Shown here: positions 3,722 to 59,238 of the stretch, in pieces
Layout of the letters: each line of letters begins with the position of its first letter
How positions within the stretch are numbered: the stretch's first letter is position 1
DNA from: Gnetum montanum
Lineage: Eukaryota; Plantae; Gnetophyta
Assembly: GCA_015680685.1 (NCBI GenBank)
Contig: MNCI01001077.1
Span: 675,037-739,036, forward strand
Length of the DNA stretch: 64,000 bases
Direction of reading: 5' to 3'
Translations under genes and position numbers: made by a program
Notes under the pieces: generated by a model
The model's database searches: none
Told to the model about the DNA's origin: nothing
Seen by the model: the letters and a program-made list of their open reading frames with translations, nothing else

Positions 3722-4099
3722 GAGCATGGGTCTCAACTCCCCCTCTTTCTCCTTTTTTTTTCTTTTTTTTTTGAAAGAATTTATAGACACTACCAATAGG
3801 CAAAACATTTTGAATGGAATGAAAGACTTCAGAAAGGAAACCGATTTTGTATTATCATGTGTGTTATGTAAAGTTTTCATGCTCTTGTATGCTAGTTTTG
3901 GGACATTTCAGGTTGTTTGTTAGTTTTAGGCCATTTTGGGTCATTGCGTAATGAGTAAAGTGAAAGGTGATAATGCTAGTTTTAGGCTATTTCAAGTCGT
4001 TGACACATGTAGCATGCTGAAAGGACGACATACTAACAAGCTAAGTAGAAAGAGAATATGCGAGGATGGTGACTGGGTGGGAGGTCATAAGGCTGCTAT

Positions 4100-13865: not shown

Positions 13866-16800
13866 CTAAACATCCGAGGCGGGAGGGTCATCCTCTCTAG
13901 AACCACCAGCGTCAGGGGCCCTTGCTCCACTGGGGCCCGCCTTTTGAGCATCATCACCACCTTTATCTTAGGAACAAACAACCAACATAAGAATAAGCGA
14001 ATGCCAAAATGGTAAACGTTATCCAATGAATTAACTCCATAAGAACAAAACACTTACCATAGGAGATCCCCCTAAGCCGAACTCTAGCCGACGAAGGATT
14101 TCTTCCTCAGGAACACTGGCCCAGTCCGTCCCATCCAGGCCTAAGTCAATGTCTGCCAAAGTCTTCCCTTTGTCGACAGCTGACTAGGTGGGATGTTTCA
14201 ATGGAAATTCTCCAACCGACACTTTCCCAGATGCAGTAGGTGACTCCATTTCCATAGTTGTATTCTGTGTAAAAGTATCGAAGGCCGAACGCAAGCCTAA
14301 ACCCTCCACAAATATTTCTAGTTGGTGCTTTTCGATGAACACCTCTTTTAGCAACCTCTTGTAGTAATGTTTATGATTCTTCTCGTCCTTACCCCACTTA
14401 TGAACCTTAGAAGCAAACGCCTTCCAATCTTGACACTTAAGGTTCAGGAGATCAATTTGAGCTTTGTGTTCTTCCATTCTCCAAGTCAAGGATGCATGAT
14501 GATTCAAAAGGTTCCAATACCTGGTGTATGTAACCTCTGATGTTTGCCAAGAGCGATCGCCACTTAGTCTAGCAGCGGCGAACTCATATCGAGCCTTTAA
14601 CCCGTCACGTTCCTCTGACAATTCGGAGACTTCCTTCTCTTTTGCCTGTATTTGTAGCCACAACTGCTCAATGGAACGCCTGCAAGTCCATAATGACTTA
14701 GCATGGTGCACAAGGCTTTCTGCAACTCCCTCATAAACAGGCCTTGGCACCTACTCCACTTTAGGGGAGAGTGTGGTTACGCTTTCCATGCTAACTCTTT
14801 CTGAGGGATCCCATCTTAGTTTAGCACCTACCCATGCGAAAAATACAAACGTCAAAACTATACAAGCAAGATGCGAAGCTCCAAAGCTTTAAGTGATTCA
14901 TACCTATATCAGGGTGGGGTTCTTGGATCCGTTCAATGACTTACTCCATGATGCTAGCCACAAAATCCCGCTTACTTGGCATTTCTGACCAAATAAGTGG
15001 CTCACGGGTACGAGAAGAACTGACCTCAGCGGTCCTCTCAGGAGGAACCGTCTTCATTGGTACGTCCAAGCGCACCGTTTTGGTCTCACTACCTTCATCT
15101 GGACAGAATAAAAAACACATAAAATAAACAAAAATATAACCCACAAAAAAGGACAACTGACAAGAGAAATCGAAACAGGATAAAAGGAAAAACATACCGT
15201 GCCCTTCATCATCCCCTGGGGGAGTGCCTAAATCCAAATCTCCTTGAAGAAAACTGTGGAACATTTGGTCGACACTACCTTGGTCATCCAACGGCTTAGT
15301 TCCTGTAGTTTTCTCCCTTAACTCCTCCGTCCTGCCACCTTGACTCGTTTCTGTATGCTCCTCCTCGTTGTTTTTCTCCGTATTGGTTTCCTCCTCCTCC
15401 GTGATTGTCTCTAAAGCCTGTTTCCTTACTGTTTTAAAAATCAAGTCAAAGGAAAAATATATCAATGACACATAAGCGATTGAGGTGAAAGTTATAAATA
15501 GAATAAAAACACTAAAGTAATAAGTAGGTGAGTTCCGCTCACTAGGCATCTTGAAGCGTATCCACTTCATGCGTGGCTGGCTCACACTGGAAACGTCCTC
15601 AGCCGGGCGCTCAGGCCTCTTTAGCTTTGCTTTAGCTTGGCCGATGGTTTCCTTGATGACCCGTTCTACCCTTCTAGCAGTGTAAGGCAGCTCATCTGCC
15701 TCCAACCCCACACTATCACGTGTATGGATTGAACCGCCAGATGATCCTCCCGTAGTAACAGAAACAGATTCATCGATACCTTCGGGTGCATTTTGGGATT
15801 TAGCTGTGTCATACAGGTGATGGATCCACAGGTGGGATAGTTGACCCCGATCCCGCAGGACAAACTTGTTATCTGTGCGAACTACCAAGAACTTGGCAAA
15901 ATGGCAAAGATAACCAGTGAAAAATGCAAAGGTGAAATGGGATTGCGCATTGACATTCGAGCGTAATCGCACTATCTCTTTGTGCATGCCCGCCAATAAA
16001 AATTTTGCCCAGTTGTATCGCATCCCTGTTTCCAAAATAGTTCGCATCACACGAACAACCTCAACCCCAAGGCACCTCACCTGGGAAAGTGTTTTGGGGA
16101 ATACCTATGCTCTGAATAGGGGATATAGTTCATTCACTTCTACAACCTTCGCCTTCCCCTGCATCAGGAATCCCTTGGTACCCTTTGCCACGCCTAGCCA
16201 GTCCTCCAATTCCCGGATCATCTGGAGCTCTTTATGAGTTCTGTCTAATACTACATTCAGGCCATCCGCTGGTACGCCAAATAGGTCCAAGAAGAACTTG
16301 GGTGACAGATGGAAAACTACCTTCACACCCTTAATCTGGGTGTTGTAGTATGTGACAGACTCATTAAAGGAGTCTACAATCCCGATCATCTCCCTAATGG
16401 AAAAATCAGGACTCGGCGTCATAAAAAGCTCCATGAGCCCAGCATCATCTAGGCAACGAGCGAGGGATGGAGGAGCATGATTCTGCAACCACTTTTGGGC
16501 CTTAGCCACCCCTCCGAACTTCATTGATAAAGTCGACTCGATTCATCCGGTGGTCACCGGATCCTCACTAGAAGGGATATTAACTATAAAAGCAATGTAA
16601 AGTTGTTATATCAGTGTAAATCCAGGCAATTGGACGAACCTACTAACATATCTAAGAAGTGTTATCATTTACCATCGGTGGTAGATCTAGATGTGCTGCC
16701 AAGATCATGAGAGAAAATTGGCCCATTGTCATTCTAGTCTTCGTGAAGCCACCCATGAGCCTTGCACATCGCAAACACTCTGGAGAACTACTTGTGAAAG

Positions 16801-18137
16801 TGGACCATCGAACCCTTTGTTTGCTTCAGCACAGTCCCACGAAGGTTAGGGCCCGTCAAAAATGCTTCCAGAGTTGTGTGAGCAAGGGCTAATCCTTCAT
16901 CTTCAATGAGAGTCCCATCCAGGTGAGTCTTCGGCCTGTAAGCAAATATGGGTCATAACAAGAAGCGAGCATTGAACGGCGAAAGGAAACAGTCAACTGA
17001 AACATGCCTACCTGGCCACTCGATACACCGTGCCAGGAGGGTTCTAGAATAATGTATGTGCGGGGGTAGCTATGAACAACGTATTGTTGAGATAATCCAG
17101 CCCCTGCGGAAATAATGCCCACACGCACGTTAATGGGCGTGTGGCCCGGGGCCCGTGCGTAGTACCATCTTCGTTAACAAAATGTCCCTCGTCAATGTCT
17201 TGTATAAAAACCATGACACCCTCCGCAGCAACCGGAAGCATCTCTTCAAGCACACTTCGTGCTATCACCTCATCAAAGTTTGATCAGATGGCCACCTCAA
17301 ATTTGTCCAACAGGAAGGATAGAAACCCACATGCGCCTCCCCAGAACCAAACGCCGTCATCATCCACAGTCAGATCCGTGGGAACCTCTTCATCTTCAAT
17401 GGGGCCAACCCACATCAATACCCCAACGAGCTCAACGACAATAAGAAAATGTTTGCTGTCCCTACAGCCAATCGCGACGCTACAATCAATCAGCCATGCT
17501 TCGAAACAACCCGAGAGACGAAAATCACATTATGGATCAATGCTCAAAAATTGAAAAATTTTCTAACTCTTAAACTCAGCGTATACGCTGCATATAGAGC
17601 GTATACGCCGACCAACACTTAGTGTAAAAATGCAATTCAAAACTCAGCGTATACGCTAGCTAGCTCAGTGTCTATGCTAGCCAGCTCAGCGTCTACGCTA
17701 GCCAGCTCAGCATCTACGCTGACAACAATCTGCTTTACGCTGACGCCCGAACCCATTCATGTACAACGTACACGCTGAGCAAACCCTCGGCGTATGCGCC
17801 TTAAATAGAAGTTACACCGACAATAAATAAATTACGCTGACAAACATTTTGCCAATAAAAGCTGTCTACGCTTCACAGTTACGCTCAGTGTATACGTCGA
17901 AAACCCTTATGCTGATACCCTTCTACGCTCGGTGTATACGCCGAGACCGTCTACGCTACAAACAAAAAATAGCATAGAAACAATAGAGGCAGGAATCAGA
18001 GCCTACCTATGAGACGTCACAGGCCACGATGGGATCTTTGTCCTGGGCAGGCCGTGCAGCATAGCCTCCTTCTCTTCCGCAAAGGTCAAGTCAGGACCCT
18101 TCCTGCCCTGGCCCTCCACTTCATTCCCCTTGCCCAT
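13866..18137 (-). pseudogene. Antisense 8-exon accessory gene of A (HAD/FCP1-like, PMD/Transposase_32-like, coiled coil)
   Basis: ATG at 18137 (MGKGNEVEGQGRKGPDLTFAEE), donor at 18006. Approximate further exons: 17500-17012, 16936-16673, 16583-15544, 15428-15199, 15099-14906, 14828-14059, 13961-13866 (TAG). Covers ORFs 17044..17268, 16105..16524, 14941..16080 and 14184..14750. Confidence 0.8.
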
Positions 18138-18392: not shown

Positions 18393-18403
18393 CCTTTATA
18401 TAG
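18393..18403 (-). promoter_or_regulatory. TATA box of A's accessory gene
   Basis: CTATATAAAGG on the minus strand, ~255 nt upstream of the ATG. Equivalent boxes occur in C (31463-31472) and D (42661-42670). Confidence 0.65.
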
Positions 18404-18802
18404 CGCTCAGATGACGCTGACGCTGACGCCGCCACCGCTTACGCCGCCACCGCTTACGCCGCTGTTGCTCCATTTTTTGCCTTTTTTGCTTATTTTTTCA
18501 CCAAAATTTGCCCAATAAAAATTAAAAATTAATTAAAAACAGAGGTTATTGCATCTGGTTTCTCCATAGACCCCATTTTGCACGTTTACGCTAGTTTAAA
18601 CTACCATCATGGCCTGGTACGGCCTTAAACTACCATTTCCCCATCCGATTGTGGCCCGGTACAACCTTAAACTATCATGCATCCAGGTGTGACGATAATC
18701 CACCATCATACACGTACACATAGTTCAAAAATTACTAAAATACATAGAACAATTCCCCCCTTTGCTCACGTGGCTCTCCATTTATTGGCAAAAGCAAGCT
18801 CA

Positions 18803-29590: not shown

Positions 29591-29659
29591 CTTCATATTA
29601 GCTTGACACTTGGCAGTTGACCAAACCAAACACGACATTTAGGAAACATTGCCACTTAC

Positions 29660-31283
29660 TTCCAGTGTTGGACTTTGAGGTTTCGCCCAGATCAGAAGCA
29701 GATGGGAAAATTGGTCCATTAGGGGCCCAGTCGGCATGCAACAAGCCATGCGCGGCGCATTGTTCAAACGCCTTTCAAAATCTCTTGGGGAAGTTCTTAA
29801 TGGCGTCCCTAGTGTGGGCCAAAATGGTCCTGCGAAGGGTGGGACCCACCTTGAACACTTCCATAGCAGTACGCGCCAATCCAATCCCATCGTTGCCCGC
29901 GTAGGCCCCATCTGGCGTAACTTTTGGCCTGCGGGAAGGCAAAAACATGTGTCGAAACGAGAGTAAGTATTTGAATGTGAAAAAGAGAGGAACAACCAAA
30001 GCTAAGACGAAATTACCTTTCCACCCAGTATACTGTGCCGGGGGGATTCTGAAACAAAGTGTGCGCGTGGCCAGCTAAGAACAATGTGTTGTTGATATAG
30101 TGGGGCCCCCACGGCAGCTGGTCCCACACACGTGTCAATGGATGGACAGACCTCGGACAATCAGGGGGAACACCCTCAGCGACAAGCGGCCCTTCATCAA
30201 TATCCTCCATAAATATTCTGATGCCCTCCGCCGCGCCAGGAAACATGGCCTCAATGATGCTCCGTGCCACATCCTCGCCTAGGTGAGATCAAACCACGAC
30301 ATTGAAATGGTCTAGCAAGAAGGCCAGAAATTTGCAGGCCCCGTCCCGGAACCAGACCCCATTGTGCTCAACGACCAAATTTGGGGTCGGGTCACCACCC
30401 TCCAAAGGACCAAACCATGTCAAAACCCCAACTAACTCAATCATTAGAAGGGGAGGCTCAATGTCTCTGCAAGCCATTGAAACAACACCAAAGATCAATA
30501 CTGAAAACGTCATTTTGGAAATTAGATATTCGCACAAAATTTTTCTAACTGTTACACTCGGCGTATACGCTGGGCATAGGAAAAACAGTTACGCTCGGCG
30601 TATACACTGGGCGTATGAAAACAGTTACGCTCGGCATATACGCTGGGCGTACGAAAGCAGTTATGCTCGGCATATACGCTGGGCGTAGGAAAAACAGTTA
30701 CGCCCAACGTATACGCTGGGCATACGAAAACAGTTACGCTCGGCATATACGCTGGGCGTACGAAAGTAGTTACGCTCAGCGTATACGTTGGGCGTAGGAA
30801 AAATAGTTACGCCCGGTGTATATGCTGGGCGTACGAAAATAGTTATGCCCGGCGTATACGCTGGGCGTACGAAAGCAGTTATGCTCGGCGTATACGCTGG
30901 GCGTAGAAACTGCATACCAAAAACTATCTACGCCATGCATAATACAAAAATTTATGCCGAATAGACTTACGCTGTGAAGTATCCGACTTACGCTTGGCGT
31001 ATACGCTGAGCGTATACACCGAAAATTGTCTACGCTGATATATTACTCTAAACCCTTCATGCTTGGCGTATACGCCGAAACCCTACGCTAACTGTCTACG
31101 CTACAAAGAAAATAGACACTAAAAATCAACGAAAACAGAGTCAAAGGCCTACCTGCCAGAAGATCCGGGCCATGTGGGGACGCTTGGGCGGGGTAGACAC
31201 TGCAGCATCGCCTCACTCTCCTCCGCAAACGTCAGTTCGGGTCCTTTATGTCCTCAGACTACTATTTCTTTACCTCTGCCCAT
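29660..31283 (-). pseudogene. First three exons (HAD-like part) of C's accessory gene
   Basis: ATG at 31283 (MGRGKEIVV*GHKGPELTFAEESEAML), donor GTAGGC at 31152. ORFs 30289..30537 and 30013..30270 align with A 17500-17012. Confidence 0.78.
30551..30910. repeat. Ten 36-37 bp palindromic tandem units in intron 1 of C's accessory gene
   Basis: Unit GTTACGCYCGGCGTATACGCTGGGCGTACGAAARCA, starting at 30551, 30588, 30624, 30660, 30697, 30733, 30769, 30806, 30842 and 30878. Confidence 0.92.
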
Positions 31284-31462
31284 CTCGGCGTCTACACCGT
31301 GGCTCATTTGGTCGGCGTCTACGCTGTGGTTTGCGTGCGTTGTAAACAGGGGTTTTCTCTCGGCGTCTACGCTGGGGTTTCGCTCAGCGTCTACGCTGGG
31401 ATTTTGCTCGCAGTTTATGCTCACGCTCTGAAAGTCAAATGAAAAAATGATGCCCCTGCTCC

Positions 31463-31472
31463 CCTTTTATAG
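31463..31472 (-). promoter_or_regulatory. TATA box of C's accessory gene
   Basis: CTATAAAAGG on the minus strand, in the same context as in A. Confidence 0.65.
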
Positions 31473-31814
31473 CGCGTTGACACTGACGCTGATGCCGCCG
31501 CCGCCGCCACCACTTTTCCATTTTTCTTGCTTTTTGTCTCATTTTTCGTGCTTTTTCGAATTTGCTTTGAATTTTTCAAAAAAGATATAAAATTTACACA
31601 CATAAACCATATAAGACACAAATTTTGGCATTAAACTACCGTCCATTGCCTGGTAAGGCATTAAACTGCCGTCCATTGCCCGGTAAGGCATTAAACTGCC
31701 GTTCCACTGTCATGTTAATCCATTTTCATACATGCACACTAAAGATTGCCACAAGACCTAAAACGACCTCCGCTATCTTACCAGGCTCTCCATTTATTGA
31801 CAGGAACTTGTCTA

Positions 31815-32780: not shown

Positions 32781-33080
32781 AGAATAGTCCTGGAATCATG
32801 ACTATAAAATGATACCACAGAATAGTCCTGGAATCATGACTATAAACTGATACCACAGAATAGTCCTGGAATCACGACTAAAAATCGATACCACAGAATA
32901 GTACAGGATTATGACTTTAAACTAACACCACGGAGTCCACTAAGACTATAAACTAGCTCGTCTCTTCATGGTCCGCTAAGACTAAAAACTGGCAACGTAA
33001 CGTCTGCCACGACGCTAAACAGGCAATGTCCAACGGATTACGACACAAAACTAACCCATAATAGTCTGCTAAGACTATAA
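32780..33080 (+). repeat. ~38-bp tandem repeats, 3' region of C
   Basis: CAGAATAGTCCTGGAATCATGACTATAAACTGATACCA, 3-4 copies, then decayed units. Confidence 0.85.
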
Positions 33081-35838: not shown

Positions 35839-37615
35839 TGTAGTAATCGAAAATGTTGGAGGCTAGAAGAACATCAGGGTCGACAGACATAACAGTTCCA
35901 ACCCCGTGCCCACGGCAGGGCAGTGCTAGGTGTGTGCAAACATGAGATGCCCTGAATGATCTTGTCGATCAGACAGGTACTTACATTGGCATCAATATAG
36001 CCTTTTGCAATATAAATTTTACGAATTGTGAAATAGTGCTTATAGGTAGATGCAGTAAGAAAAAAATGAAACTCTAAAAATGCAACAGTAATGTGAAATA
36101 ATCAATAAAGTAGAGATGCGATGGTAATAAGAAGTGATGCTGAACAAGAGAAACGTAAATGCGGTAGTAATATGAGATGGTGCTTGAAGGTAAATAAGAT
36201 AGAAAATAATACAAGAAAGCTAGATAGTAAATGAGAGGTGAAGTAAGATATGATTAGAAACATTCACCGCTTCAGAGCTACAAACTCGCTTGGTCAGGGT
36301 GGATACAATCAGTTGCACAGCGTGATGGAGTGCAGAAATCCAGAGAGTAACCAAGGCGTGTCGAGCAAAAAGAGCTATGTGCTTGGATGTGGACTTGGGT
36401 ACAAACAATGCAGGGTTGTACCAAGGTGGTAGAATGGAGATGGAACCCCATGCCAGATGAGAGAGACTCATTGTTTACAGTGTTAAATAGATAACTTTGA
36501 TGTTACAATGCTAGAGAGAGGAGAATTCTTTGTTCCAAAATTCCAAAGTTCCCACCCCTTGGAAGATTTTTGCTTTAAAAAGGATATGAACTCCTTTGAA
36601 ATTACCAACCTTTAAAAATTGTAGACATTTTTCATGCTTTTTGCTGAGCTATTTATAGGACCAAGGGCATGCAAAAGGGATGGTTTGAATGCTACATGCC
36701 TTGGGCCTTCGTTGTCTTGCTGGCACCACTCGTGCCATTTGTGACCATTGGACCTACAAGATAGTTGCGATGCGAAACTATGTGTAGTAAGTACAATCCT
36801 ACTATGTTGTAATTGTGCCATCAGCATCTAGAGATGTGTAACAATGGTCTGATTATGTGGAGTGCATTGATGTCACACAACCACCTGCATGTCTTGCTAT
36901 GCTTTGTGACGTAGCATGCTTGGTGTAGCATAGCATTTTATCACGTGTTCTACTATATGTCACATGCTTGCTATGCTATGCTACGCTATGTAGCATAGCT
37001 TAGTGTAGCAACTGGCCTTAGTCGTGAAAGCTTTGCAGATTTGCAAACCTTGTCTCTTGCGATGTAGGTCTTGCGAACTCCGTTGACTCCCCCTTTCAAA
37101 CTACCTTTTGTTTCTTTCATAGGATTGCTACGCCTTGCTGCACCATGTAGCTCAGCGTAGCATAGGAGCAGACATGGTCCACCACTTCCTAATGGAAAGG
37201 GACATCATTGCATAACTCGAAATCGGGCGAGGTGAGTGGGTACTGAAGTTGTTACCATGCTACGTTGCATGGCGTATCCTAGTGTAGGACTTCATTTCGC
37301 CATCATCTTTTGAAGTTTGCTATGCTACATAGCGTAGTAGGCTTCGTGACCTAGAAAACTTACTGAACTATTTTTTGCACATCCAGAATGCTGCTGCTGA
37401 CTCCGTGCATTACTTTTGAATAGGCCATCAACTAGGCGGGCTACATTGGTGGATAGGAGGGATGATGTGGAGCTTATCCATGTCCAAAGTAGAAAATCTA
37501 CCTAACTAGCTAGTCTGAACTCAGAATGTTCTTCTCCTAAAGAACTGCCATAGTGCTACATGGATTTCCATGCTTGGTGAAGCAAGAATGACCTCGCATT
37601 TTTTGGAGTGTTTCA
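35839..37615 (-). repeat. LTR shared by D (as 3' LTR) and B (as 5' LTR), ~1.8 kb
   Basis: Minus strand TGAAACACTCC...ACTACA. Homologous to 52429-54120. PPT AAAGAGGG at ~37621-37628 before it and a PBS after it. Confidence 0.9.
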
Positions 37616-38857: not shown

Positions 38858-41800
38858 TCAGACATAGTACAGTTTGAGATGCGAGTGATTCACTCGGTTG
38901 GTCAACTCATTGCTATCCATGTCCACCATCTTAAAGGCTCCATTTCCAAAGGCTTTGGTGACCACATAAGGACCTTCCGAATTGGTTGAGAATTTTCTCA
39001 CATGTTCATGGATGACCTTGAGGATGAGGTCTCCCTTCTACATTGGCTATCGATGCAGGTCTGCACAGTGCTTTTGCTATTGTTTGTTCTGATAGTGCTT
39101 GATGCGTCTCAATGTTTTAGGATCATCTAGAGTGAGGTTACCTACGACTCAAGAGGAAATACCACTTTAGATCCATAGACAAGACTATAAGGGGTCTTAA
39201 TTGTTGCAGTTTGGCATGTTGTTTGGTAGGCCCAGAGGACATAGAGTATTTGCTCGTGCCACCACCTCTTGCTGTTGTTAAGCATCTGCTTCAGCAAGTT
39301 AATGATGGACTTATTTGTAGCCTCAACTTGCCCATTCACCTATCGATAATAAAGGGAAGAAAATGATTATTTAATGCCTAGATTGATACAGAAGGTTCAG
39401 GTCTCCATACTGCTAAATTGTGGGCCATTGTTGGTCACAATAGTCATCGCAAGCCCAAACCTAGTTACTATGTTATCAAGGATGAAATGGCAGATTTGCT
39501 GGGATGTCATCTTCCTCAGGGGAATAGCCTCCACCCACTTGGTAAAATACTCCGTGGCAGTGATAATGAAGGTATGCCCTATGAAGGACTTAGGCGTGAT
39601 AGACCCTATGAGGTCTAGTCCCCATCATTGGAAGGGCCACGTGATTTGCATTGGGTGTAGGTCTATAGGTCCTACCTGTATGAGATTTGCATATCTTTGG
39701 CATGTGTTGCACATCTTGACTTTCGACAGGCAGTCATGTTCCATGTAGGGAAAATAGTACCCTAGGCATTTGATTTTTGCCACCATAGCCTTGGGTGCTA
39801 TGTGTTCACCGCACAGCCCTTCATGAATCTCATTAACTACCTTTTGTGCCTGCTCGCCACCCATGCATGCCAGTAATATCCCATCATAGGATTATTGGCA
39901 CAGGGTATCATTTCCCATGATCACGCTTACGAATTGCATCTCTCTGGGCCAATGTCAATCCACTTGGGGGGTTCTCCATGTTGTAGATAAGCTTTAATGT
40001 TATCGTACCACTCCGGGGTATCTACAGCATCGATAGAGGCCACGTGTTCTACCTGAGTGATAGGCTCTATACATTTTGTGATCGCGGTTGGCAAGTTTGC
40101 CAAAGAATGTGATGGGATGTTTAACGCGAGGGTAGCTAGGGCATCTGCTATGGTGTTCTCATTACATGGCACATGTTTCACATCAATGGTTGTGAATTGC
40201 TTGAGTAGGATTTTTGCTAGGTCGCAGTATGGTTGTAGGTGTGTAGCCTTGTAGGTGTATACTTCGGTGACATGATTCACGACTAGTTGTGAATCTCCTC
40301 GAATTTCCAAATGTTTTATACTTAGCGCTAAGGCAATTAAGAGGTCTCTAAGTAGCCCCTCATATTCTTCCATGTTGTTGGTGCAAGGGAACATAAAAAA
40401 ATAAGCAGATGGATACATTTCCCTAGAGGGGAATGTGATCGTGGCAGCAGCGCTACCTCCTCGTATGGTTGAGGCATCGTCAAAATGGAAGGTAGCCACG
40501 AAATGGGATAGGACAATGGCAACATTGCTAACGTATTCATCTAGGAATTCTGGGTCTATGGTAGCCTGGTCGTCGACTGGCGAGGCCATAAGTTGGGTTG
40601 CTATAGCTTCACCCTTTGTCAACAATTGACTTACATAGCATAGGTCGAACTCCGCGGTTATTTCCTTCCATTGGGCTATCCTGCTACTTTCGTACAAGTT
40701 GCTAGTGATATTCTGAAGTATGTTACTTTTGCAAATGATGTTGGTTATGCTGCTGAATAGGTAATGCCGCCACTTTTTTACTGCATATACTAAGGCTAGG
40801 CAATTCCTCTCCACTTTTTTGTATTTTGCCTCGCATGCTACTAGTTTGTGGCTCAGGTAGTACACCGGTATCTCAGAACCATCGTCTCAATCTAACATAG
40901 CAGTGCCACTATGGATGTGTTAGAGGTGGTAAGGTATATGAAGAAAGGCTTGTCCTTTTGCGATGGGTGCACCGTTGGGAGCTGTGAGAGCTCCTTCTTC
41001 AGGTCATCAAAGGATTTTTGACACTAGGTTTTCCATTCAAAGTCATCTACTACCTCCTTGGACTTAACTGCTATGTCATCTATGTAATCGTTTAATGTTT
41101 CTAAGATGTAGTCACTGAAAATGTAGGTCATGGCTTGCTGGTAGGTTACTCTAGCATTCTTGAGTCTGAAAGGCATCATGGTATAGTAGAAGGTTCCTCA
41201 TGGAGTCATGAAGGTTGTTAACAACTGGTGCTCTGGGTTGATGCAGATTTGGTTGTATCCAGAGAAGCCATCTATGAAGGATAGCAAAGCATGACCAGCT
41301 GTGGTGTCGATGAGTTGATCAATTCTCGAGAGTGGGAAGTTGTCTTTGATTGTTGCCTTGTTCAAGTATCAAAAGTCTATAAAAATTCATATCCCTCCCA
41401 TTTTCTTTGAAACTACAACGATGTTGGATACCCACTCTAAATAATTGATTACTAGGATGAAACCTGCTTGGTATAACTTAGTGATTTCATCCCTCATGAC
41501 TAGTGTGATTTTTGGCTTAATTTTATGAGCTTTTTTCTTACTAGCCTTTACGTGTGGATCTAGGACGATGTTATGCCGAATCAACCATGGATCCAGACCC
41601 AACATGTTGTTGTATGACCATGCAAATACATTGATATGGTCCTGTAGAGTTTTAACTACGCCTTCATGTGTTTGTGTGTCTAGGAGGGAGCTGAGTCTTA
41701 ATGTCTTTACCTTCCCCTTTGATGTGGTCACGGGTATCTTGACAAGAGGATCCTCGGTTACATCCCTGACCTCTAAATCTAGGGCTTGGACTAGATGCCT

Positions 41801-41947
41801 GGGCCAATCTGGGAATGCTTCTAAGGTTGCTATAGTGTTAATCGTAGTCGACCCCCAGTTGATAATGTCGGGGTTCAACTATCTTGCGAGCTTGCCCTAT
41901 GGCCCTGCTATCATTAAAGGCATGGAAATGGCACAATGGATTCCCAT
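38858..41947 (-). pseudogene. pol: pol of D: RT (internal deletion near 41050), RH, aRH, INT with GPY module
   Basis: ORFs 41387..41878, 39927..40865, 39625..39864 and 39142..39339. YIDD near 41085. C-terminus EGPYVVTKAFGNGAFK...HLKLYYV-stop. Confidence 0.92.
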
Positions 41948-42660
41948 CTCTTACTTGACCTACCATCATAAGATGAAATCTTGGATAAGGATCATCATAG
42001 ATTGTGTGAAACGCAAATCTACAATGCAACACTGAGATGCAACTTGCTAAGCGAGGTGATTTAAAGATTGAAAGTTTGCTAGTTTAAGGTCATGGTGGAC
42101 CACCAAGGTGCAAGAGTGTAGAATTTCTAATGGAACGTGTGACTGTCGACATGAGAATTTCAAGCTGCTAGTTTAGTGTCATCTCAGACTACCATATTGC
42201 AACATGCAAAATCTTGATATGCAAAACAACAAAAAAAGGAAATTACGAATACGAGTATCAAACTACCAGTGTGAAAATTGAATCATGAAACTACTAGGAA
42301 ATGTGACACTACCTATGTGGAAGAGGATGAGGTGACTCTGGTGTAAGGATATGCTTAGTTTAATGTCATTGCGGACTACGAACGTAATGGGTCAAAACTA
42401 CTATTTTAGGGTCTTTTCGAACCCTGAGGAGTGCAACTATGCTAGGCTCATTAGTTTAAGGTGTTTTCAGACCCTTAATCGAAAATAAATATTATTATAT
42501 TTTTTCTTTATCTTCGGGAAGGCAAGTAGTTGGCTTGAAGTGTGTCAAGGCTTAAATGTTAATAGTGTTATGATGTCATGGCGAGCATGCTACGCTACAC
42601 GGTGCACTCCACATTAATCAGAGAGAGAAAGAGGTAAGTTTTTCCATCTTGCCCTTGCAG

Positions 42661-42670
42661 CTATAAATAG
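42661..42670 (+). promoter_or_regulatory. TATA box of D's accessory gene
   Basis: CTATAAATAG pointing away from pol and toward the accessory gene. Confidence 0.6.
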
Positions 42671-42820
42671 GGGTTAAACATGGGTAATTTCGTTGTTTCC
42701 ACCGTAAGAGCGCAGAACCCTCATCGTAGCATATGGTGAATTCGGAGTGCGAAGCAGTTGTGTTGATCGACTAGCAAGACGAATTTCTACAGTGAAGGTC
42801 ATAAATCTGCAAGGAGGGCC

Positions 42821-45800
42821 ATGGCTCCTAAGACTCATCTGGTGCTTGCAAAGGTTGAGGAGGTGAAAATGCCCTGAGATGCATGCCACAAGCACACGTT
42901 CTAGCATGAGAGAGCACATCGTTGACCTAGTAAGTTTTCATGCCTCCTTCGCTCTTTTCATTTTACACCTTTTGCTATTTTTTTCTTTGGTTTTGCATCC
43001 TATTTGTTCTGCTATTTGTGTTTTCTATGACCATGTTATTTTAGCCTTTGTATCGTTGTGGCCTCTTTCGGTCGTGGCCGATGTGCAAAGGTTTTGTTGT
43101 AAGGCTGCTGGGACTGCTACCATTGCGGCTATCATGCCCGTAGGGCTGGGGAAGTTTAAGCTGTTTAACCTTGGCATGTCATAACGTAAAACGCTTGGGA
43201 GGGTTTGGTCATGTGTGACGAGTGTTTTTTTTATGCATGTTATCAATTATTTTACTGCTACGCTGAGCTACTTGCATGTTTTGACTATGCTAGGCTCTCA
43301 CACCTTTTCTATGCTATGTATGGGTAGAGGATTATGCTATGCTATATTTATGGACTACTAGACGTTGCTATGTTGCACATGTATTGCGTTCAAGTGTGAC
43401 ACCAACATTCGTTGATTAAATTGTGCAAGGCTGGGCCAAGGTCTAGGCTGATCATTTTGGACCTTGGAAGGGTCCTATGCCATGTAAGCAAACCTATGGC
43501 CAATGCTCCTCCTCCCTTGATACATGTGGGAGATCGAGCGGTTTGGTTTAGGGTAGGGGCACAAGACTCCTTGCAATTCCTTCCGAACCACTTTAGTGTG
43601 ATTGTTTAGTCTTTCTTAGAAGAGATGCAAGCATCTGGCATAATAGAGGCCATGTTGCCAAGGGAAAATCGGGGCATCCTGAGATACCTTTCCGATGAGG
43701 GGACCATGAGCAAGCAGGGAGGGGGGTCCAGCCAACATGCAATAGGGTTGAGGCATTTAGCCTAGATCTGGGACATGCAGGAATACCAGTGCTATCACCC
43801 GTACAACACATTGTACCTCACACATCACATGGCGATGTACTTTCAGAACCCATAGGGGATAGTCTATTGTGCTGGTGGGTGAGTTTTGCATCTTTTCTTT
43901 GCTTCATTGTGCAACAGCATCTATACTTGGCTGAATGCTAATAGTGTGTGTTTGTCACCAGGTCCTACATTGATGATGATGGGGTTCATGATCAACCAAA
44001 TCTGCTGGCTATGACACAGCTAGCCCTACAGGAGTTTGCTTCCGCCAAGAGCTTGCGGGTGAGCGTGATTGGTCATTACGGGGGAGAATACCGTAGTTAC
44101 CCATGCACGCTCATCAATTTCTACAATTAGTTTAGGGTGAAGGATTGGCTGGACAAGAAGTGGAGAAAACCTTTAAAATAGGTCACACTTGAAGCAGTTC
44201 TGGCGATTGAACTCCCGCTATTCCCATTACCGTATAGACGTGTTGGGTCAAAAGGTAGGCACCACATGCTCAAGTATTTTTGTAATCTTTGCATTCTCTG
44301 CATTATTAGGCTATGTTTGTTTTGTGAAAATCATTTTAGGGGCAAGGAAGCCTCACGAGGTGATGGTGGTAACCACCAAGAGGCAAGGGGAAAACATCTA
44401 CTTTAAATACAGTGAAGTAGCAATGAGCTAGAGCTAGTTAGAATGAGGGACCCTAGAATCTTTACTCAAGAAAGTTTTAAATGTGGGGCTTATGGATCTA
44501 TTCATGGCTCCAAATCTGGGCATCTCTACTACCTAGATGCTCTCCTTGGTCAACTCCTTCTCTGGGAAGGCGAGTCATTTTCATGACTACGTGCGGGGCG
44601 TGCAGGTGGTCATTGACATCGATGACCAGCTATTTAAGGATTTGTTTGGCATTCTTGCCGATGGAGCCCCCGTACTGTCGAAGGAAAAATAGGAGTTAAC
44701 CTTGCAGAAGTAGCATATTGAGGAGTGGTTGAGGCTCTCCAAGGAGCGAAAAGGATTTCCCATGGAAAATCTTAAGGATAGCCTTGCCATGGGGATATAC
44801 CTAGTCTTTTGTGCTCGTGCATTTCATCAACTGCTCATCGAAGGAAAGGTCCTAGGGCTTGAGTAGGCTTGGGTAATGTGGAAAGTCATGGAGGAGGGGG
44901 CCCATTACAACTGGGCCAAATTCCTATGTAGTGGTTTATAGGCTGAGATCTTGGGACTCCGTGAGCAAATGCAGTCTCTCTCTAACATACACTATGCCTT
45001 CTACATAGGCTATTTAAAGTGCTTCGTAGAGTTCTTGGTGGTTCAAGAGGATGGAGTCTGGTCCATGCTAGACCATGACCAGATTCCGAAGCCATAGATT
45101 CAGCAGGTCCTCCAAACTATGCAAGCCCAAGATCCTCCAAAAATGGTTGAGAAGTCATTGTCTATATGACTAAAGGTCTGGCAGTTCGTAGCGCTCGCAG
45201 CTAGGACAGTGTAGGAGAGACCCCCCTGTTATAGTTGGTAGCATGATATAGGGTGAACGTCTCATAGCTGAGACTATGCCCAAGGATCTGCGAAGGAAGA
45301 GACCTCCCCCAAACAAGGAAAGCTCTCATGAAGAGGAAGGACAGAGATTGCGGCTAAAGCTGCGGCGAACACAACCCCCCATTGGTAAGCATTTTTGTAT
45401 AATGCTTATTTTGTTATAGTTTGCTATGTTATGCTGTGCTAGGTGGTGTGACGTAGCATAGCACCTATTTTGAACCAGCTTGTTTTGAATCGATGCAAAC
45501 ATGCCTTTTTTACTTAGCAAAGGAAGAAGAAGATGAAGAAGAAGACAATGAGGAAGTATTAGCCCTTAGGACAAGGCTGACGAATAAATATGTGGAGGCC
45601 CCAATTTCAAAGAAAAGGGCCCCAATTAGGAATAATGGAGATCCTTTCTCTAGGACAAAGGCTCTTGTCATTATGGATCCTCTTCCTACCAATGAAGAGG
45701 TACCTCCCCAAAATAAAAAAGATGTTGGTCTCTTGAAAGGAAAGGCACTAGTGCATGAGGAAGGGACTTGCATGGATTTGGTAGGGCCCTCTACCATGTC

Positions 45801-47198
45801 TACCACGATCATCTTATCTCAATAAGAAGAAAGACTGTAGTTGGGCAGTGGTGAGTTTGTGAGACGTCTGCCTCATTATAGTCCATTTTGGCTATTGCTA
45901 ACATGCTTAATCGTGTAACAGGTGTTACTGCTAACACCGCGAGACCTCCTCCGCCTCATACAAAGTTGTGGGTCGACGTCCTTGACAAGTTTACGTTTGT
46001 GCAGGTACTTGTTGATGATATGATCAGACGCCTTCAACAAGTGGACCCTCATGCAGGTAAGTATCAACGTTAACTGCCCTTATGTTTCTACGCTGAGGCT
46101 TTCGAGTTTCTTGATTATGCTATGCTAACGCAATTACTACGCTCTATGCGTTAAATAGACTCTCAGCTCAAGTGGGACCCGACACGACCTATGAAGGTTG
46201 GCGTGATGCCCACACTCTCACCTGACGTGATCGAGGTATCTCATCACATGTTTGATGAGGTTTATAAGTGTTTCTTGCACCCGGCATGCTCTCTGTGGGA
46301 ATGTAGGCACACCAATGAGGACTTGTGGAAATGCGTCCAAAGGGCTGAGCAGAGAGAGGCCAACTTGGCTGCCGAGGTGGAGAATCTTAGGTCGAGGAAT
46401 ACTTTTCTTATAAACCACAACCCTGACCCAGTTGATTGGAAGAGGGCTATAGACGACTACATCAGGTTTGGGACTGTCGTTCATCAGAACATTGAATCCA
46501 CCTGCAAGATAGTCGAATAGCAAAGGTAGATGAACTTGCTAGCCCAGAAGTTCCAAGACATGAAATACATTAGCACTAAGGTCTTCTAATGGGGAAAAAT
46601 CGAGAGAAACCATAAACATATGTACAAGATGGAGAATGAGACCCACTAGAAACTGTATAGAGACACTACTATGGAGGCATTCACGTATGAAGCATTCGTG
46701 AAGGTCATCGGTGCTTTTGAGGCCTATGCTAAGTTTAAAGAGTAGGTAGAGGTCATGGAATCTCCTAACTTGACGGTGAACCTTCCGATAGGAGGGACCA
46801 CAACCACTTCCCTTTCCATGGAACCTCTAAAATGGATGATCGCGGAAAGGGAGAAGGCTGCTACAGTGAATGTTGAACCCAGCGACAGGTGTTGGATGGA
46901 TATTTCGATAGAGGAGATTTTGTGTCACCTCAGGCTTGGTCTAGACCAAATACCCCTTGAGACTAGCGTAGGCTCCTCTCAGGTTAGTCGGTTTCATGTT
47001 ATGTTATAGCTTGCATTTATTGCATTTTTTGCCCTAGCTAACTACTTCATTCTTACAGTGCAAGCTCCATATGAGGGTGCGAGACCTATGGGGAGAGGGA
47101 ATGCAAGATCGTTAGAAGGCAATGTAGGAGCGGGTGATGCAAAAGTAGATGAAGCGGAGGCAAATAGTGAAGGCATTGCAACTAGAAACAACCCATGA
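42821..47198 (+). pseudogene. Antisense accessory gene of D (first exon uncertain)
   Basis: HAD-like exon ~43420-43878 (SRLIILDLGRVL...VWFRVGAQDSLQFLPNHFSVIV*S...IWDMQEYQCYHPYNTLYL...FQNP). Introns at the same sites as in B. ORFs 45493..45825, 46191..46520 and 46755..47009. Stop at 47196-47198. Confidence 0.8.
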
Positions 47199-47714
47199 TA
47201 GCATGGGAGTTTCCTTTTTCAAAAATTTTTATTTTTGAAAATTTTGCAACATTGCCAATAGGCAAAAATTTTGAATGAAATGAAAAACTTCAACAAGGAA
47301 ATCGATTTTGTGTAAACTTGTGTATTATGTAAATTTTTCATGCTTTCATATACTAGTTTTAGGCCATCTCGGGCCATTTCTAGTTTTGGGCCATTTCGGG
47401 CCGTTGTGTGACAAATTAAAGCGATAAGCGATAATGCTAGTTTTAGGCCTTTTTGGGCCAATGCAAAAAGAGGTAGTTCATTAACAAAGAAATAAGGTGA
47501 TGATGCTAGTTTTAGGCCATTTCGGGCAATTAGCGTAGCAGGCTAGAACAGTGGTATGTTAATAAAGTGGAACACAGTGATGCTAGTTTTAGGCCATTCT
47601 AGGTCGTAGTGTAGCATGTCGCACGGTCAACATACTAACAAGGCAAGGAAATGATGAATGTAGAAGGATAGCGATCGGGCCAGAAGCCGTAGGGCTGCTA
47701 TGCTATGCGTAGCT

Positions 47715-50700
47715 ACTTCTTGACCCATCATGGATTGATCAAAACATAAGGTCAAGGTGTTTCACTAGGGCCCCCATTCATATCATTATCCTTCACTTAG
47801 AAAGGCAACTCAACCGATGTGTTTTTGATTTGAGGGCGGGTTCGCTGGACCAACCCTTATGTTGCATGATTAGGTGCTTCATCCTTAGAGGTTGTAACTT
47901 CTAAACCCTATTCAATGCCTACGTTGCGGATTTCTTGCGTTGTCACTTTATCATGACGGATTACCACCTCTCTACCTACATATGTAAGTGGATTTCCTAG
48001 TGTATAGGTGAGGAGATAGCCTTGAGTTGTGCTAACCATGATCTCCCCAAGATTATGTTGAACCCAGGCATTTCTTCGACTACGATGAATGTTGCGTTTG
48101 TCAAGAACCGGTCCCCTACTACGAAGTCTACATGAACTATGCCCTTCACCAAGATGCATGCCCCATTGAACGACCTTAGACACAATGTCATTGTTGGTTT
48201 GATTTGTTTGACCAACCCCAACTTATCCACAATAGGGAAGGGAATGATGTTCGTGGCAGTCCCATCATCAATGTGTACCCTTTGGATCTGGTGTTGGCCG
48301 ACCCAAATTGTGATAAAGAGAGGCATCATAGTTACTTAACCCCCTTCAGGATCTTCCCTAATGGCATCGTTACTAAAAATTAATTGAGGTGTTGTGGAAT
48401 CCGCGAGTACAGAGGGAAGCATTACTGAGTGGATCACTCCCTCTTCTACTAGCATGTTCCCATTGACCAGAATCATGGTTAACATGTAGACTAGAGCCTC
48501 TCGGTGAGGTACAGATGTCATGAGTAAGTCTTACAAGCTCAATGTAGCATTTTTCTACTTTAGGGCTTGCCTGACCTGGGTGAGGGTGTCCAAGAAGTCT
48601 TGGCTACCCACCTTTTTGACATTTTCCTCCTCTTCAATTAGTCCTAGAAGATGAATCTCTCAAAGAGAGATGACCTCGGACCTAGGTTCAAATCCTTGTC
48701 AGCAAGGTAATGTAGGCTATGTAATCATGTCGACCTTCATATTTGGTGATGAAGGTGTAAATACAAGGGGCGAAGGCATAGACTTGGAGATACCTTTGAT
48801 AGTACTTCCCTTCGATGTCTCATCCACTAAGTGGGCTTCTCGCCTTGTGGGGTAAGGAGGTTGTTTAATGTTGTTGCACGGGATGGGGGTTGTCAAAGAT
48901 GTTGGCCTCCTAATGATGAATGGAGCTAGAGGTGTTAACTAACAAGGTCATGTGATCTCGCCTACAGGCAGTGCAGAGGTAGATGCCTGTGGTGGAACTT
49001 TTAGGATGAAGGATAGCTGTGAGCTTGGACCAACCATTGGTGGTATTGGTGCACTACACTGAGGCACAAGAATTTCAAATGACTAGAAGGGTGGCCTCAG
49101 ATCATTGGAAATACTGATGGTGTTGATCATGTAACCAGCATTATTGGTCTTGAGGGGATCTATGTAGACATACATAAATTGATTTTCATGGCGGAATGGA
49201 TTCCTTTCATCCAGCACCATCTTTCCCAGGTTGATTAATCTTTGGATGTCATCCTACAACGACAAACAATAATCCATGATGTGACCACATAGTTGGTGGT
49301 AGTTACAAAACCTATCTAGCCTGAAACCCCTAGGAATAGGGAGGCTTATTGGGCAAGTCCAAAGAGGGATTCCTAAGGAGCTCATAGTAGCGTTGATGTC
49401 TCATGTTTGCTTCCTTTGACATCTGCTTGTGTTGGATGTATCCCGCTGCCAATAGTTGCTTCAGGACTTCTAAAGGTTTGAGAGGTAGTGGAGTGTATTT
49501 GAATGATCTTTGCTCTTGAAGCTAGGTTTAGTGTATGCAGATGTCTCAGGTGTAGGTGTGGGGGGCCTAGTTTGGGCAGAGAGTTAGCTGTAGGTATGGC
49601 TGGTTTCTTGTTATTCTTGCTTCCACTGTTGATAGGTTTGGGCTTAGCCTCGGTTGCCATAGTGGCCACTATGGTTGTTGGGTCCTTACCCTTGTCCTTT
49701 TTTGCAGAGTTTTTCTTGTAAGTGATGTAGGTCGAGTCTTTGCTTGCCTCAACCATGTCTTGTATGCTTTTAGTCTAAGCGAAAGCTTTGCTAAGAGAGC
49801 ATGGAGCGAGATAATACAGCTTGGACTTAATGAAGTCATTCACTACATCCCTAAAGATGGCTAACAAGTGAGCCTCCATGATGGGCTTATGGATTTCGTT
49901 AAGGATCATGCTCCAATGTTGAATGAATTTTTGGATTAGTTCTAACGGGTCTTGTATCATGCCCATCAGCTAATCCAGTGTGGTTTCTAACTTCAAGTTG
50001 TACTCGAAGCATGTCACAAAATGGGTCAAGAGTTCTTTCAAAGTTGAAATGGATGAACGTGGCAATGTGCAGTACCAATCTAGGGTTTTCCTAGCTAGGG
50101 ACATGGCAAAGACACAAATGATCATATGCAGCCATTGTTGCAGTAGCAAAGACTCTAACTAGAAAGTGATGAGATGTGTATTGGAATCTCCCTCCTTGTC
50201 GTACTTCGTGAAGTGTGGGAGAGAAATCATAGGCGATAATATGAAAGTAGGGATTGCAGGATTGACTAGGTCATCCTGATAAAAGTCCATGACTTGCACC
50301 ATGTCAGACCCAATAGCTTTGAGGCATTTTATTTCCTCAGTTAGGATCTAGATGAGTTGAAACGTTTGGTCCAGACCTAGTGACATTGTAGATGGCTGAC
50401 GGATTGTACAGGAAACTCCCACATGCGGCATGGTGGCAGTGGTGGGTTGACCCATTGGCGATGCCATTGGGGCCACCCCTACTAAAGGTGTTGCTTGCAT
50501 TGTCCACCACCTAGTGGGTGGTATTTTCGGACTGGTAATAGCGAGTTGAGTCACCGAATAGACCATTTGGATTACCGGCGGGACAAACCATGGCCCCGTG
50601 CCAGGATGTATCATTTGTGGGGTTGGGTAGGTCTGAGGGCAAACATAGTGAGACATCTGTGATGGTTGTAGAATAGACAAAAAGGTGAATGGGGTCCACC

Positions 50701-52428: not shown

Positions 52429-54120
52429 TGTAGCAACCAAAAATGTCAGTGATTGGAAAACACTAGGGGGTTGATGGGCATGATAGTTTCGACCCCGTAT
52501 TTGTGGGAGGGCTGTGCTGGGTATGTGTAGACACGGGGTGCCCTAAACTATCTGGTCGATCAGATAGGGACTTACATCAGCGTCAATATAGCCTTTTGCA
52601 ATGTAAATAATTTGAAATGCAAGATAGTGCTTAAAAGTAAATGAAGCAGGAGAGAAACTATGAAAAATGCGACAGTAACATGAAGTAATGCTTTAAGGTG
52701 AATAAAATAGAAAATGATGCAAAATGAGACAACAAGCAAGAAATAAAGTAAAGTGTAGTTAGAAACATGCACCACTCTAAAGCTAAAAACTCGCTTAGTC
52801 AGGGTGGATACAATCGATTGCACAGCATGACAGAGTGCAGAAATCTCGAGAGTAGCCAAGGTGTATTGAGTGAAAAGAGCTATGCGCATGGACGTAGACT
52901 TGGGTACAAAAAATGTGGGATTCTACCAAGGTGGTTGAATGGAGACGAAACCCCACACCAGCTGAGCGAGACTCACTATTTACAGTGTTAAAAAGATAAC
53001 TTTGATGTTACAATGCTGGAGACAGGAGAAGTATTCATTCCAGAATTCCAAAGTTCCCATCCCTTGGAAGTTGTTTGCTTTAAAAAGGATGCAAACTCCT
53101 TTGAAATTTCCAACCTTTAAAAATTGCAGACCTTTTACATGTTTCTTTCCAGGGTATTTATAGGACCAAGGGTGTGTGAAAGGGGTGGTTTGAATGCTAC
53201 GTGCCTTGGGCCTTCACTGTCTTACTGGTGCCACTCGTGCCATTTGTAACCATTGGACCTATAAGACAGTTGCGATGTGAACCTATGTGTAATAACTACA
53301 ATCCTACTATGTCATACTTGTGCAAACAGCATCTAGAGACGTGTGCCAATGGTTTGATTAGGTGGAGTGCATTGATGTTGCACAACCACCTACATGTCTT
53401 GCTGTGCTTTGTGACGTAGCATGCTTGGCGTAGAGTAGCATTTTGTCATGCATTCTACCATATGTCACATGCTTGCTATGCTATGCTACGCTACATAGTG
53501 TAGCAACTGGCCATAGTCACAAAAGCTTTGCCGATTTGCAAACCTTGTCTCCTGTGATGCAAGTCTTGTGAACTCCATTGACTCCACCTTTCGAACTACC
53601 TTCTATTTCTTCCATAAGATTGCTACACCTTGCTGTGCCATGTAGCTCAGCATAGCATAGCAGTAGACATGGTTTGCTACTTTTTTACGGAAAGGGACAC
53701 AATTGCAAAACTTAAAATCAGGAGAGGGGAGGGGGTAGTGAATTCTTTGCCATGCTACACTGCGTGGCATAGCATAGCATAGCACTTTGTTTCGCCATCA
53801 TCTTTTGAAGCTTGCTATGCTATATAGCGTAGCGTATTGTAGTAGGCTTTGTAACTTGAAAATTTTGCCAAACTATTTTTTGTGCATTCAGAATGCTGCT
53901 ACTAACTCTGTGCACTGCTTCTGAATAGGCCATTGGCTGGGTAGGCTACTTTGGTGCATAGGTGGGATGATGTGGAGCTTATCCATGCTCAAAGTAGAAA
54001 ATTTTCTGAACTGGTCGGTCTGAACTCATAACGTTCTTCTCCTGGAGAACTGCCATAGTGCTGTGCAGATTTCCATTCCTGGTGAAGCAAGAATGACCTT
54101 GCATTTTTTTGGATTTTTCA
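52429..54120 (-). repeat. 5' LTR of D
   Basis: Homologous to 35839-37615. The plus strand ends ...TTTTTCA at 54120, abutting E gag. Confidence 0.9.
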
Positions 54121-56669: not shown

Positions 56670-57744
56670 CCATGCTATCATAATTCGTCTTTGCCTGCAT
56701 CATCTTCTCCCGTATTGTTTCCTTCCACATTGTTTCCTTCTATGTCACCTTCCTCTGCACCACCCTAAACCAAGCCTGAGGTGGTGCTAGACCTCCTCCT
56801 CCATGATATCTTCACAGTACCTATCACTTGGTTCAACGTTTGCAGTAACTTTCTTCTTTTCAATGGCCATCCATATTAGCGATCCTGGAGAAAAGGAGGT
56901 AGTAGCAGTCACACCTGTGGGATGATCCACTTCCCATTTAGAGATTCAGTAACTGTGACCTGCTCCATGAACTTGTTATAAGCTTTAGAAGCAACAATGG
57001 CATTCAAGAATGATTCATGGATAAACACCTTCACTGAAGCATCCCGGTATTGTTTGCCATAGGTGGCACATTCTAGTTTATACATATGTTTATGGTTCTT
57101 CTGGGACTTCCCCCACTTGTAAACTCTGGTGCTATAATCTTTCTAGTCCTGGTTCTTCTAAGTCAACAAGTCCATCTGCATCCTCTATTTTATTATCTCC
57201 CGAGTAGCTTCATTGTTGTGCTACATGGCTATCCAATATCTAGCATAATCTATGACAATCATGTGTCAACTGCCATCATTGGTATGATGAGTGAGGAGAA
57301 ACTTGTTCATGGATTAGAGGTCTCCCACCTCAGTGCTCAGTTCAGCCTTCTCTTTCTCAGTCCTCTAGACCCATTTCCAAAGGTCTTCATTGACGTGCCT
57401 ACACTCCCACAAGGAGTGTGCCAAGTGCAAAGCGCATTTGCTAGCCTTATCATATATGCGACAAGGAACCTCGGCCACTTCAGGTAGAAATGTAGACACA
57501 GCATCGACTTTCAACACCTATTTTGGGTCCCACTTGAGTTGAGAGGTTGTGATCACATAAAGAGAACATTAGTCACACTAGCGTAGCGAAGTTAGCAACT
57601 CAGGAAGTCTAGCATAGCAAACTCAAAAAGCCTAGTGTAGTAGCTTTACTCACCCACTTCAGGATCGACCTATCTGAGACAACAAATCATGTCTACAATG
57701 ATCCCCTGCATGAAAGTAAGCTTGTCAGGGGTCTCAGCCCATGG
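56670..57744 (-). pseudogene. 3' exons of E's antisense accessory gene
   Basis: The reverse complement reads PWAETPDKLTFMQGIIVDMI..., donor GTGAGT near 57652, then SQLKWDP... and the coiled-coil exon. Homologous to 2480-3720. Confidence 0.78.
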
Positions 57745-58986: not shown

Positions 58987-59238
58987 ATTTTCTAGTGCTA
59001 GAAGGAGTGCCTAAGGTCCAATTTTCATTTCATGGGTAATCTTGTACGTTGTCTATACCCATTTTCAATCGATGTAAACATAATACCTCTGTGGTTGTTT
59101 ACAAGATTGTGTGGCGTAGATCGGTCGCTTCGACGATTCATCTGGAATCCTGCAGGGTAGAAAGTCCATTTTCACCTTAGCTTGCCTTTGCCTTTGTGAT
59201 CTTTATCCTTGTCATCATTACTCTTAAGCTGTGTAGAG

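Follow-up and report, generated by a model that had tools for sequence, protein, structure and literature searches.

Does a plant retrotransposon carry, at the head of an accessory gene, a domain that keeps the fold of a host phosphatase after losing most of its catalytic residues, and if so, what might such a domain do? The question is raised by a 64,000-nucleotide stretch of the Gnetum montanum genome (GenBank assembly GCA_015680685.1, contig MNCI01001077.1, positions 675,037 to 739,036 of the forward strand), hereafter the window, which self-comparison, Pfam matches and element termini identify as a nest of decayed plant Ty3/gypsy long terminal repeat (LTR) retrotransposons. The gene in question lies antisense within its element, between gag-protease (gag-PR) and the reverse transcriptase (RT), RNase H (RH), additional RNase H (aRH) and integrase (INT) genes, and its copies are named here after the elements that hold them (Table 1). 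An earlier note, made from the letters alone, had read a captured FCP1/NIF-family pseudophosphatase of the HAD superfamily in copies D, A and C. Our analysis points to Tat/Ogre-like elements with an antisense gene that opens with a NIF fold deprived of most catalytic residues, which is likely a non-catalytic binding or decoy module, a reading to which we assign a probability of roughly 0.6.

The NIF domain in these elements is real, with significant profile similarity over the domain. Stop codons are present in every copy in the window, and single copies stay below the Pfam NIF (PF03031) cut-off of 21.8 bits: two of the four give any match, D at E=0.0057 (16.8 bits) and C at E=0.057 (13.5 bits), with no NIF match for A or B. 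Joined into one profile in which stops are written as X, the four copies lie far above chance, retrieving 44 matches at E<=0.001 among 1,835,955,588 proteins (best 3.1e-8, none above 50 bits), all 44 of which pass the NIF cut-off. A reciprocal profile, built from 51 domains of the 44 matched proteins and run over 432 six-frame segments of the window, scores D at 57.9, A at 52.8 and C at 48.4 bits against a maximum of -0.1 bits in reversed segments, in a scan that is partly circular, the matched proteins having been selected by the copies themselves. The HMMER-type check proposed in the earlier note has thus been run, and the HAD/NIF fold claimed at its quoted motifs is borne out by the profile matches and by the fold models described below. 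The extent proposed for it, 43420..44100, holds in part: the domain is present, but its homology stops at 43878, the splice donor, and including the following exon does not raise the score (62.8 vs 63.1 bits). Nor does the accessory protein seem to begin with the domain, as had been claimed, since a short predicted first exon of 43 amino acids (in A and C) probably precedes it. A word-based protein search with the domain confirmed none of 1008 candidates (proteins of 36-259 amino acids), the four-copy profile matched no PDB sequence at E<=10, and metagenome scans for domains of the accessory gene confirmed none of 45 and none of 182 pattern matches.

Structure prediction supports a HAD Rossmannoid fold with a beta insertion after motif I. 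The model built from the four copies alone is independent but weak (predicted local distance difference test, pLDDT, 48): its top Foldseek rows, Tim50 (E 0.12) and Scp1 (E 0.17), are not significant, and the 50 rows listed by VIA-align are all HAD-superfamily folds, by title or recall, at Z 5.6-7.3, a range that the tool calls common. When homologues are included, in an alignment of 40 rows comprising the four copies, 35 of the 44 matches (nine long ones omitted) and one cluster member at 9% identity, the model reaches a pLDDT of 86, biased as it is by its own alignment, and yields 21 matches in the PDB at E<=0.001, with CTDNEP1 and Scp1 at the top (template modelling scores of 0.65-0.71); all the matches listed at that threshold are CTDNEP1, Scp or Tim50.

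The matched proteins belong to the DxNG FCP1-homology group, with Asn at position +2 of motif I in 45 of 51 host domains and DxD in none; those with names are plant and red-algal, and mostly labelled hypothetical or 'putative FCP1 domain'. The closest group to the element domain appears to be this uncharacterised one and not Fcp1/Scp1, which corrects the earlier assignment. Likeness to the DxNG proteins of plants, algae and protists (among them Helianthus KAM0004709.1 and Sphagnum KAH8970694.1) extends over the whole domain, with the motifs WS, K.L..VW, NT and NP(P) in common, at 17-26% identity to short matches. Unlike these proteins, the element copies have all lost the motif IV acids, and in them the domain is fused into an accessory protein of a retrotransposon, with no detectable remnant of the C-terminal tail seen in hosts. 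Among solved structures, the nearest relative of the profile, which in this comparison consists mostly of host sequences, is UBLCP1 (PDB 3shq, E 3e-14), followed by CTDNEP1 (2e-9) and Scp1 (2e-7). With UBLCP1, CTDNEP1, Scp1/CTDSP1, Tim50 and Fcp1 the copies share the NIF-type HAD fold, but they lack DxDx(T/V), the motif IV Asp and the pocket with which Scp1 receives the C-terminal domain (CTD) of RNA polymerase II; Pfam found neither UBL nor BRCT in the scanned parts of the accessory protein.

The tree called for in the earlier note was built and answers part of what it was meant to decide. The copies fall with DxNG-type host domains as profile matches, but the placement of the element clade is unsure: among 54 rows (B, UBLCP1 and Scp excluded), the three full copies form one clade (100/99) on a long branch, at 1.2 changes per site to the clade. 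Grouping them with 14 land-plant domains is not rejected (approximately unbiased test, p-AU 0.76; constrained tree 27 log units above the free search), and a plant donor of the domain is allowed. Host proteins with two NIF domains (P0008, P0015, P0019, P0029, P0041) have a degenerate second domain (DIGG, EMDG, DTGG, DVSG; DD lost) that parallels the retrotransposon copies. The 912-residue protein P0025, which combines a DxNG NIF domain with a weak Ulp1-protease-like domain (Pfam E=0.0085), may represent another transposon with a NIF domain.

Most catalytic residues have been lost from the active site of the copies. In Scp1, Asp96 is the phosphate acceptor, Asp98 the likely general acid and Asp206 helps to bind Mg2+ (PMC3215212). 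Motif I reads DLGR in D and ELVG in both A and C, so that DxDx(T/V) is absent: the nucleophile Asp (49 of 51 host domains) is D, E and E, and the +2 Asn is G, V and V, in copies D, A and C. These residues agree with the earlier reading, but the loss of DxD that it drew from them is overstated, the source group already being without DxD. The Ser of motif II is retained in all three copies that reach it, the following Ser and a conserved Cys being lost, and the motif III Lys (50 of 51 hosts) has become R, R, R and H, basic in three of four copies and His in C. As had been claimed, the motif IV acids are gone from every copy: Asp-Asp (50 and 42 of 51 hosts, respectively) reads TH, VR, AT and AG in D, B, A and C, the first, Mg2+-binding Asp being T, V, A and A, and the Lys after the pair is lost as well. 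Overall, the host consensus is matched at 4 of 24 residues in eight active-site columns vs 46 of 66 in other conserved columns (Fisher p=9e-6, for three copies that are not independent and columns picked after viewing).

These losses predate the decay of the copies, because A and C have an identical Ala codon at motif IV and identical Glu and Val codons at motif I in spite of saturated synonymous sites. A change from Asp to Ala is neither C-to-T nor G-to-A, and 12 of 19 stops stand opposite a Trp, Gln or Arg of the sister copy, a count that includes the frameshifted stretch of D. Ordinary decay does not explain the loss of the motif IV aspartates in four of four copies.

Capture of the domain into a retrotransposon accessory gene, another element of the earlier interpretation, is supported. 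The predicted gene of copy A comprises 1,060 codons with nine internal stops and no frameshift. GT-AG boundaries are conserved: A and D, at 29% identity, have matching positions and phases for the intron that follows the domain and for the one behind the next exon, and C and B share the former. A TATA-like pattern is found at three sites in the window, each lying 0.8-1.0 kb before the domain exon of one of D, A and C, against 0.05 expected for a pattern derived from the same three sites. Differences between copies cluster at third codon positions, dN/dS between D and B is 0.275 in the domain (66 codons) and 0.49, 0.21 and 0.245 in later exons, and A vs C gives pN 0.26 and pS 0.83, values that indicate purifying selection on the accessory gene. 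Further downstream, the domain of about 250 amino acids is 33-36% identical between A and D/B; it has no Pfam or database family match, and a word-based search with it confirmed none of 2742 candidates (proteins of 136-455 amino acids). Pfam found no PMD in the helical or C-terminal regions, the C-terminal region of A yields weak coiled-coil-type rows (E about 0.05), and hydrophobicity shows a marginal peak only, inside the NIF domain.

Under the reading we favour, an ancestral element would have captured a host DxNG-type phosphatase domain, the gene would be transcribed head-to-head with pol from a TATA promoter of its own, and splicing would yield a protein of about 1,060 amino acids consisting of this domain, an unknown helical domain, a charged linker and a coiled coil. 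The dead domain would bind the partners of the host phosphatase or its phosphorylated targets, and these would be shielded, or tethered to the rest of the protein, in a way that aids transcription or transposition of the element; the decoy role suggested in the earlier note is thus plausible as a hypothesis. The pol genes could be reached by splicing the whole gap out of genomic RNA, as in Ogre, or via a transcript of their own. We regard as doubtful the more specific proposal of an undescribed Tat lineage in which an eight-exon gene specifies a substrate-trapping decoy that grips phosphorylated targets of a host FCP1-homology/UBLCP1-like phosphatase and blocks host control of retrotransposition; if that decoy did exist, the uncharacterised host family would constitute a retrotransposon-restriction pathway.

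Several observations weigh against a non-catalytic binding module. Neither a partner nor an activity nor the protein has been observed, and the cited literature does not establish that host DxNG proteins are themselves active. Canonical phosphate binding is weaker once the Mg2+ ligand is gone, and phosphorylated molecules may not be bound by the domain at all. What the protein does as a whole can only be guessed, because its downstream domain lacks a Pfam or database match. RNA reads are few (97, 24, 184 and 97 in one search and 42, 3, 21 and 8 in another, with about 2% or 26% of each run covered); none is 99% alike to copy D, the reads stemming from relatives, and they contain no splice joint at any predicted intron, some continuing into the intron after the domain. 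Strand bias is unlike between runs X1 and X2 and therefore does not fix the direction of the transcript. In addition, relatives of D appear to keep Asp and Glu at motif I, which would make weak activity possible in that subfamily.

Among the alternatives, the one that survives best, unlikely as we hold it to be, is that the HAD fold serves as a scaffold for a task unrelated to phosphate, such as oligomerisation, nucleic-acid or chromatin binding, or particle assembly. It would account for a structural core that is kept while most polar active-site residues are lost, for the motif III His of C and for the long branch of the element clade, and other Tat accessory domains have been proposed to bind DNA (PMC11963269). 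What it leaves unaccounted for is the retention of the motif II Ser (3/3) and of a basic residue at motif III (3/4) across subfamilies that are 30-36% identical.

The RNA reads from relatives of D bear on a second alternative, in which the D/B subfamily would specify a slow or substrate-trapping phosphatase, like Scp1 D206A, and only A and C would be dead. The D206A mutant of Scp1 traps the phospho-aspartate intermediate (PMC3215212), and D retains the nucleophile Asp, the Ser and the Arg. Among the reads listed, which are unphased and have 43 more beyond them, motif I seems to occur in two variants, with Glu at +2 in 8 of 15 reads and Glu at the nucleophile in 6 of 15; the reads suggest Glu or Arg at +2, and Ala at motif IV in 6 of 7. 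The same reads thus offer an acid at +2 and, in about half of those covering motif I, take away the nucleophile; with the two motif IV acids and the Lys behind them, the second Ser of motif II and the conserved Cys lost, we judge such an enzyme to be quite improbable.

The earlier note had further suggested binding of the RNA polymerase II CTD, and a protein that shields the phosphorylated CTD against host CTD phosphatases would be a third alternative. The pocket of Scp1, which we take to be numbered F106, Y158, R178 and Y188 and which was mapped onto the copies by motif offsets, corresponds there to K/P/P, Q/I/V, E/N/I/I and G/S/A/S, with no aromatic residue or Arg at these four positions in any copy; the positions are not conserved in the copies and are partly conserved in the host group. 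No mention of the pocket residues was found in PMC7281111. Scp1 requires Mg2+ to hold phospho-Ser5, a ligand of which is lost here, and receives CTD Pro3 in its aromatic pocket (PMC3215212). Given, moreover, that the nearest group is DxNG/UBLCP1-like and not Scp/Fcp1, the suggestion is not supported and we consider it very improbable, even if the fold is common to Scp1 and Fcp1 and some Tat antisense accessory proteins are nuclear (PMC7264820). That a captured host fragment has simply decayed in a neutral manner, as stops in all copies and the lack of spliced reads might suggest, is scarcely credible and largely refuted by dN/dS well below 1, the third-position bias, and introns and a promoter box conserved across subfamilies 30-36% identical.

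The elements themselves bear the traits of the Tat lineage. Elements A and D have the order RT-RH-aRH-INT that typifies Tat elements (PMC6317226, PMC4408406, PMC10508981), and LTRs, primer-binding site, polypurine tract and 5-bp target-site duplication (TSD) are all present. As described for Ogre/Tat elements in the same articles, domain order, separation of gag-PR from pol, 5-bp TSD, large size and an extra open reading frame (ORF) are common to both, but the extra ORF of Ogre/Tat lies 5' of gag or 3' of INT and often carries PMD or Transposase_28, whereas the gene reported here lies between PR and RT, with seven predicted introns and a NIF cargo. In most cases, antisense extra ORFs of Tat elements have been located either 5' of gag or in the interval from pol to the 3' LTR (PMC6317226, PMC7264820, PMC11963269). 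Those of Retand, Grande and RIRE2 are likewise antisense and family-wide, with their own promoter, a coiled-coil region and unknown function, yet they sit between pol and the 3' LTR and have no recognisable host source (PMC7264820, PMC11963269), in contrast to the traceable host enzyme fold of the present gene. A captured host enzyme domain is also found in the AlkB demethylase cargo of orchid Ty3/gypsy elements, a cargo that is active (PMC9289625). A looser analogy is provided by the Arabidopsis PMD-PP7 fusions, MAIN/MAIL1-PP7L (PMC7156037), which join a transposon-type domain to a phosphatase-family domain, PP7 being of a different superfamily from the NIF domain.

A 2020 review noted that most extra genes of plant LTR retrotransposons have no host counterpart (PMC7264820), and both the origin and the function of these genes are open questions. 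Additional file 4 of PMC6317226 contains no NIF, and its criterion of E<=1e-10 in at least five elements would miss this domain; the text of a screen of 121 angiosperm genomes (PMC9289625) discusses no NIF; PMC13468544 mentions neither eORF, antisense nor phosphatase; and no report of a NIF/HAD domain in a retrotransposon was found in the portion of the open-access literature that was searched. Within the surveys consulted, the NIF cargo and the position of the gene between protease and RT are absent, antisense extra ORFs themselves being already known in Tat. A fold that can be traced to a host enzyme and bears a clean signature of a pseudo-enzyme offers a concrete test, namely to find its binding target, which would also point to what the DxNG phosphatases do in the host, and a spliced antisense gene between protease and RT would force an unusual mode of pol expression.

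Table 1. Positions of the accessory-gene copies and of the retrotransposons that hold them, in window coordinates
Feature	Position	Strand	Remarks
Copy D, NIF/FCP1-homology (HAD-fold) exon	43430..43878	+	3 stop codons; motifs in frame 43442-43870
Copy C, NIF-like domain	30468-30022	-	
Copy A, NIF-like domain	17463-17017	-	
Copy B, NIF-like domain, 5'-cut	254-459	+	
Copy A, accessory gene	13868..18137	-	best preserved; 8 predicted exons, 7 GT-AG introns
Copy D, predicted intron	43879..43961	+	83 nt, GT-AG, phase 2; D, B, A and C agree in its position
Copy D, next predicted exon	43962..44254	+	98 aa, without significant NIF similarity
Copy D, predicted exon with conserved unknown-family domain	44340..45384	+	about 250 aa; frameshifted near 3' end
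Copy D, remaining predicted exons	45518..47199	+	charged linker, predicted coiled-coil-like region and a short final exon; some boundaries approximate
Copy C, first three predicted exons	29659..31283	-	remainder deleted
Copy B, accessory gene from 3' half of NIF-like domain on	254..3987	+	
Copy E, C-terminal region only found	56951..57544	-	also antisense, downstream of protease
TATA-like box of D	42660..42671	+	
TATA-like box of A	18393..18404	-	
TATA-like box of C	31462..31473	-	
Element A	7564-24870	+	LTRs 7564-8872, 23575-24870; 5-bp TSD, 1 mismatch
Element C	25391-35244	+	internally deleted kin of A; LTRs 25391-26547, 34056-35244; perfect 5-bp TSD
Element D	54120 to 35839	-	5' LTR 52429..54120, primer-binding site next
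LTR common to D (as 3' LTR) and B (as 5' LTR)	35839..37615	-	
Aspartic protease of D, end of gag-PR	48000..48335	-	Pfam E=0.003, under cut-off
pol of D: RT, RH, aRH, INT	39154..41878	-	Pfam

Element A, 17.3 kb in size, contains gag, PR, the antisense accessory gene, RT, RH, aRH and INT. In A and D, a gap of about 5.5-6 kb separates gag-PR from the block of RT, RH, aRH and INT; PR and RT stand apart, and no conserved donor-acceptor pair joining gag-PR to pol was identified in the elements. Among the best 120 of 2833 matches, no database protein exceeds 59% identity to the element RT. Elements A and C, for both of which a TSD is observed, lie inside the 5' portion of element B. Divergence between LTRs (Kimura two-parameter) amounts to 0.096 in A, 0.088 in C and 0.18 for the D pair, with transitions predominating. 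Because a polypurine tract precedes and a primer-binding site follows the LTR at 35839-37615, D and B form a tandem with one common LTR; its identity to the 5' LTR of D is 83%, down to 69% in the final stretch, a drop that would fit recombination between two family members. The primer-binding site presumably resembles tRNA-Asn, and ARAGORN predicts no tRNA gene in the window.

Some minor features accompany the gene and its elements. Tandem arrays at 30547-30909 (36-bp unit, 10 copies) and 17643-17720 (21-bp unit, 3.7 copies) occupy the predicted first intron, and related motifs occur in the LTRs. The promoter box of the accessory gene faces the beginning of the pol frame head to head, within about 0.3-0.8 kb (41900-42700; 18400-18700). 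A run of 276 N bases at 21946-22221 falls within element A near the integrase. At 1-253, sequence unlike copy D takes the place of the 5' half of copy B's domain and is possibly another insertion. Lastly, 54120-63200 holds two further family members, elements E and F, with gag-PR on the plus strand and a primer-binding site at 58993.

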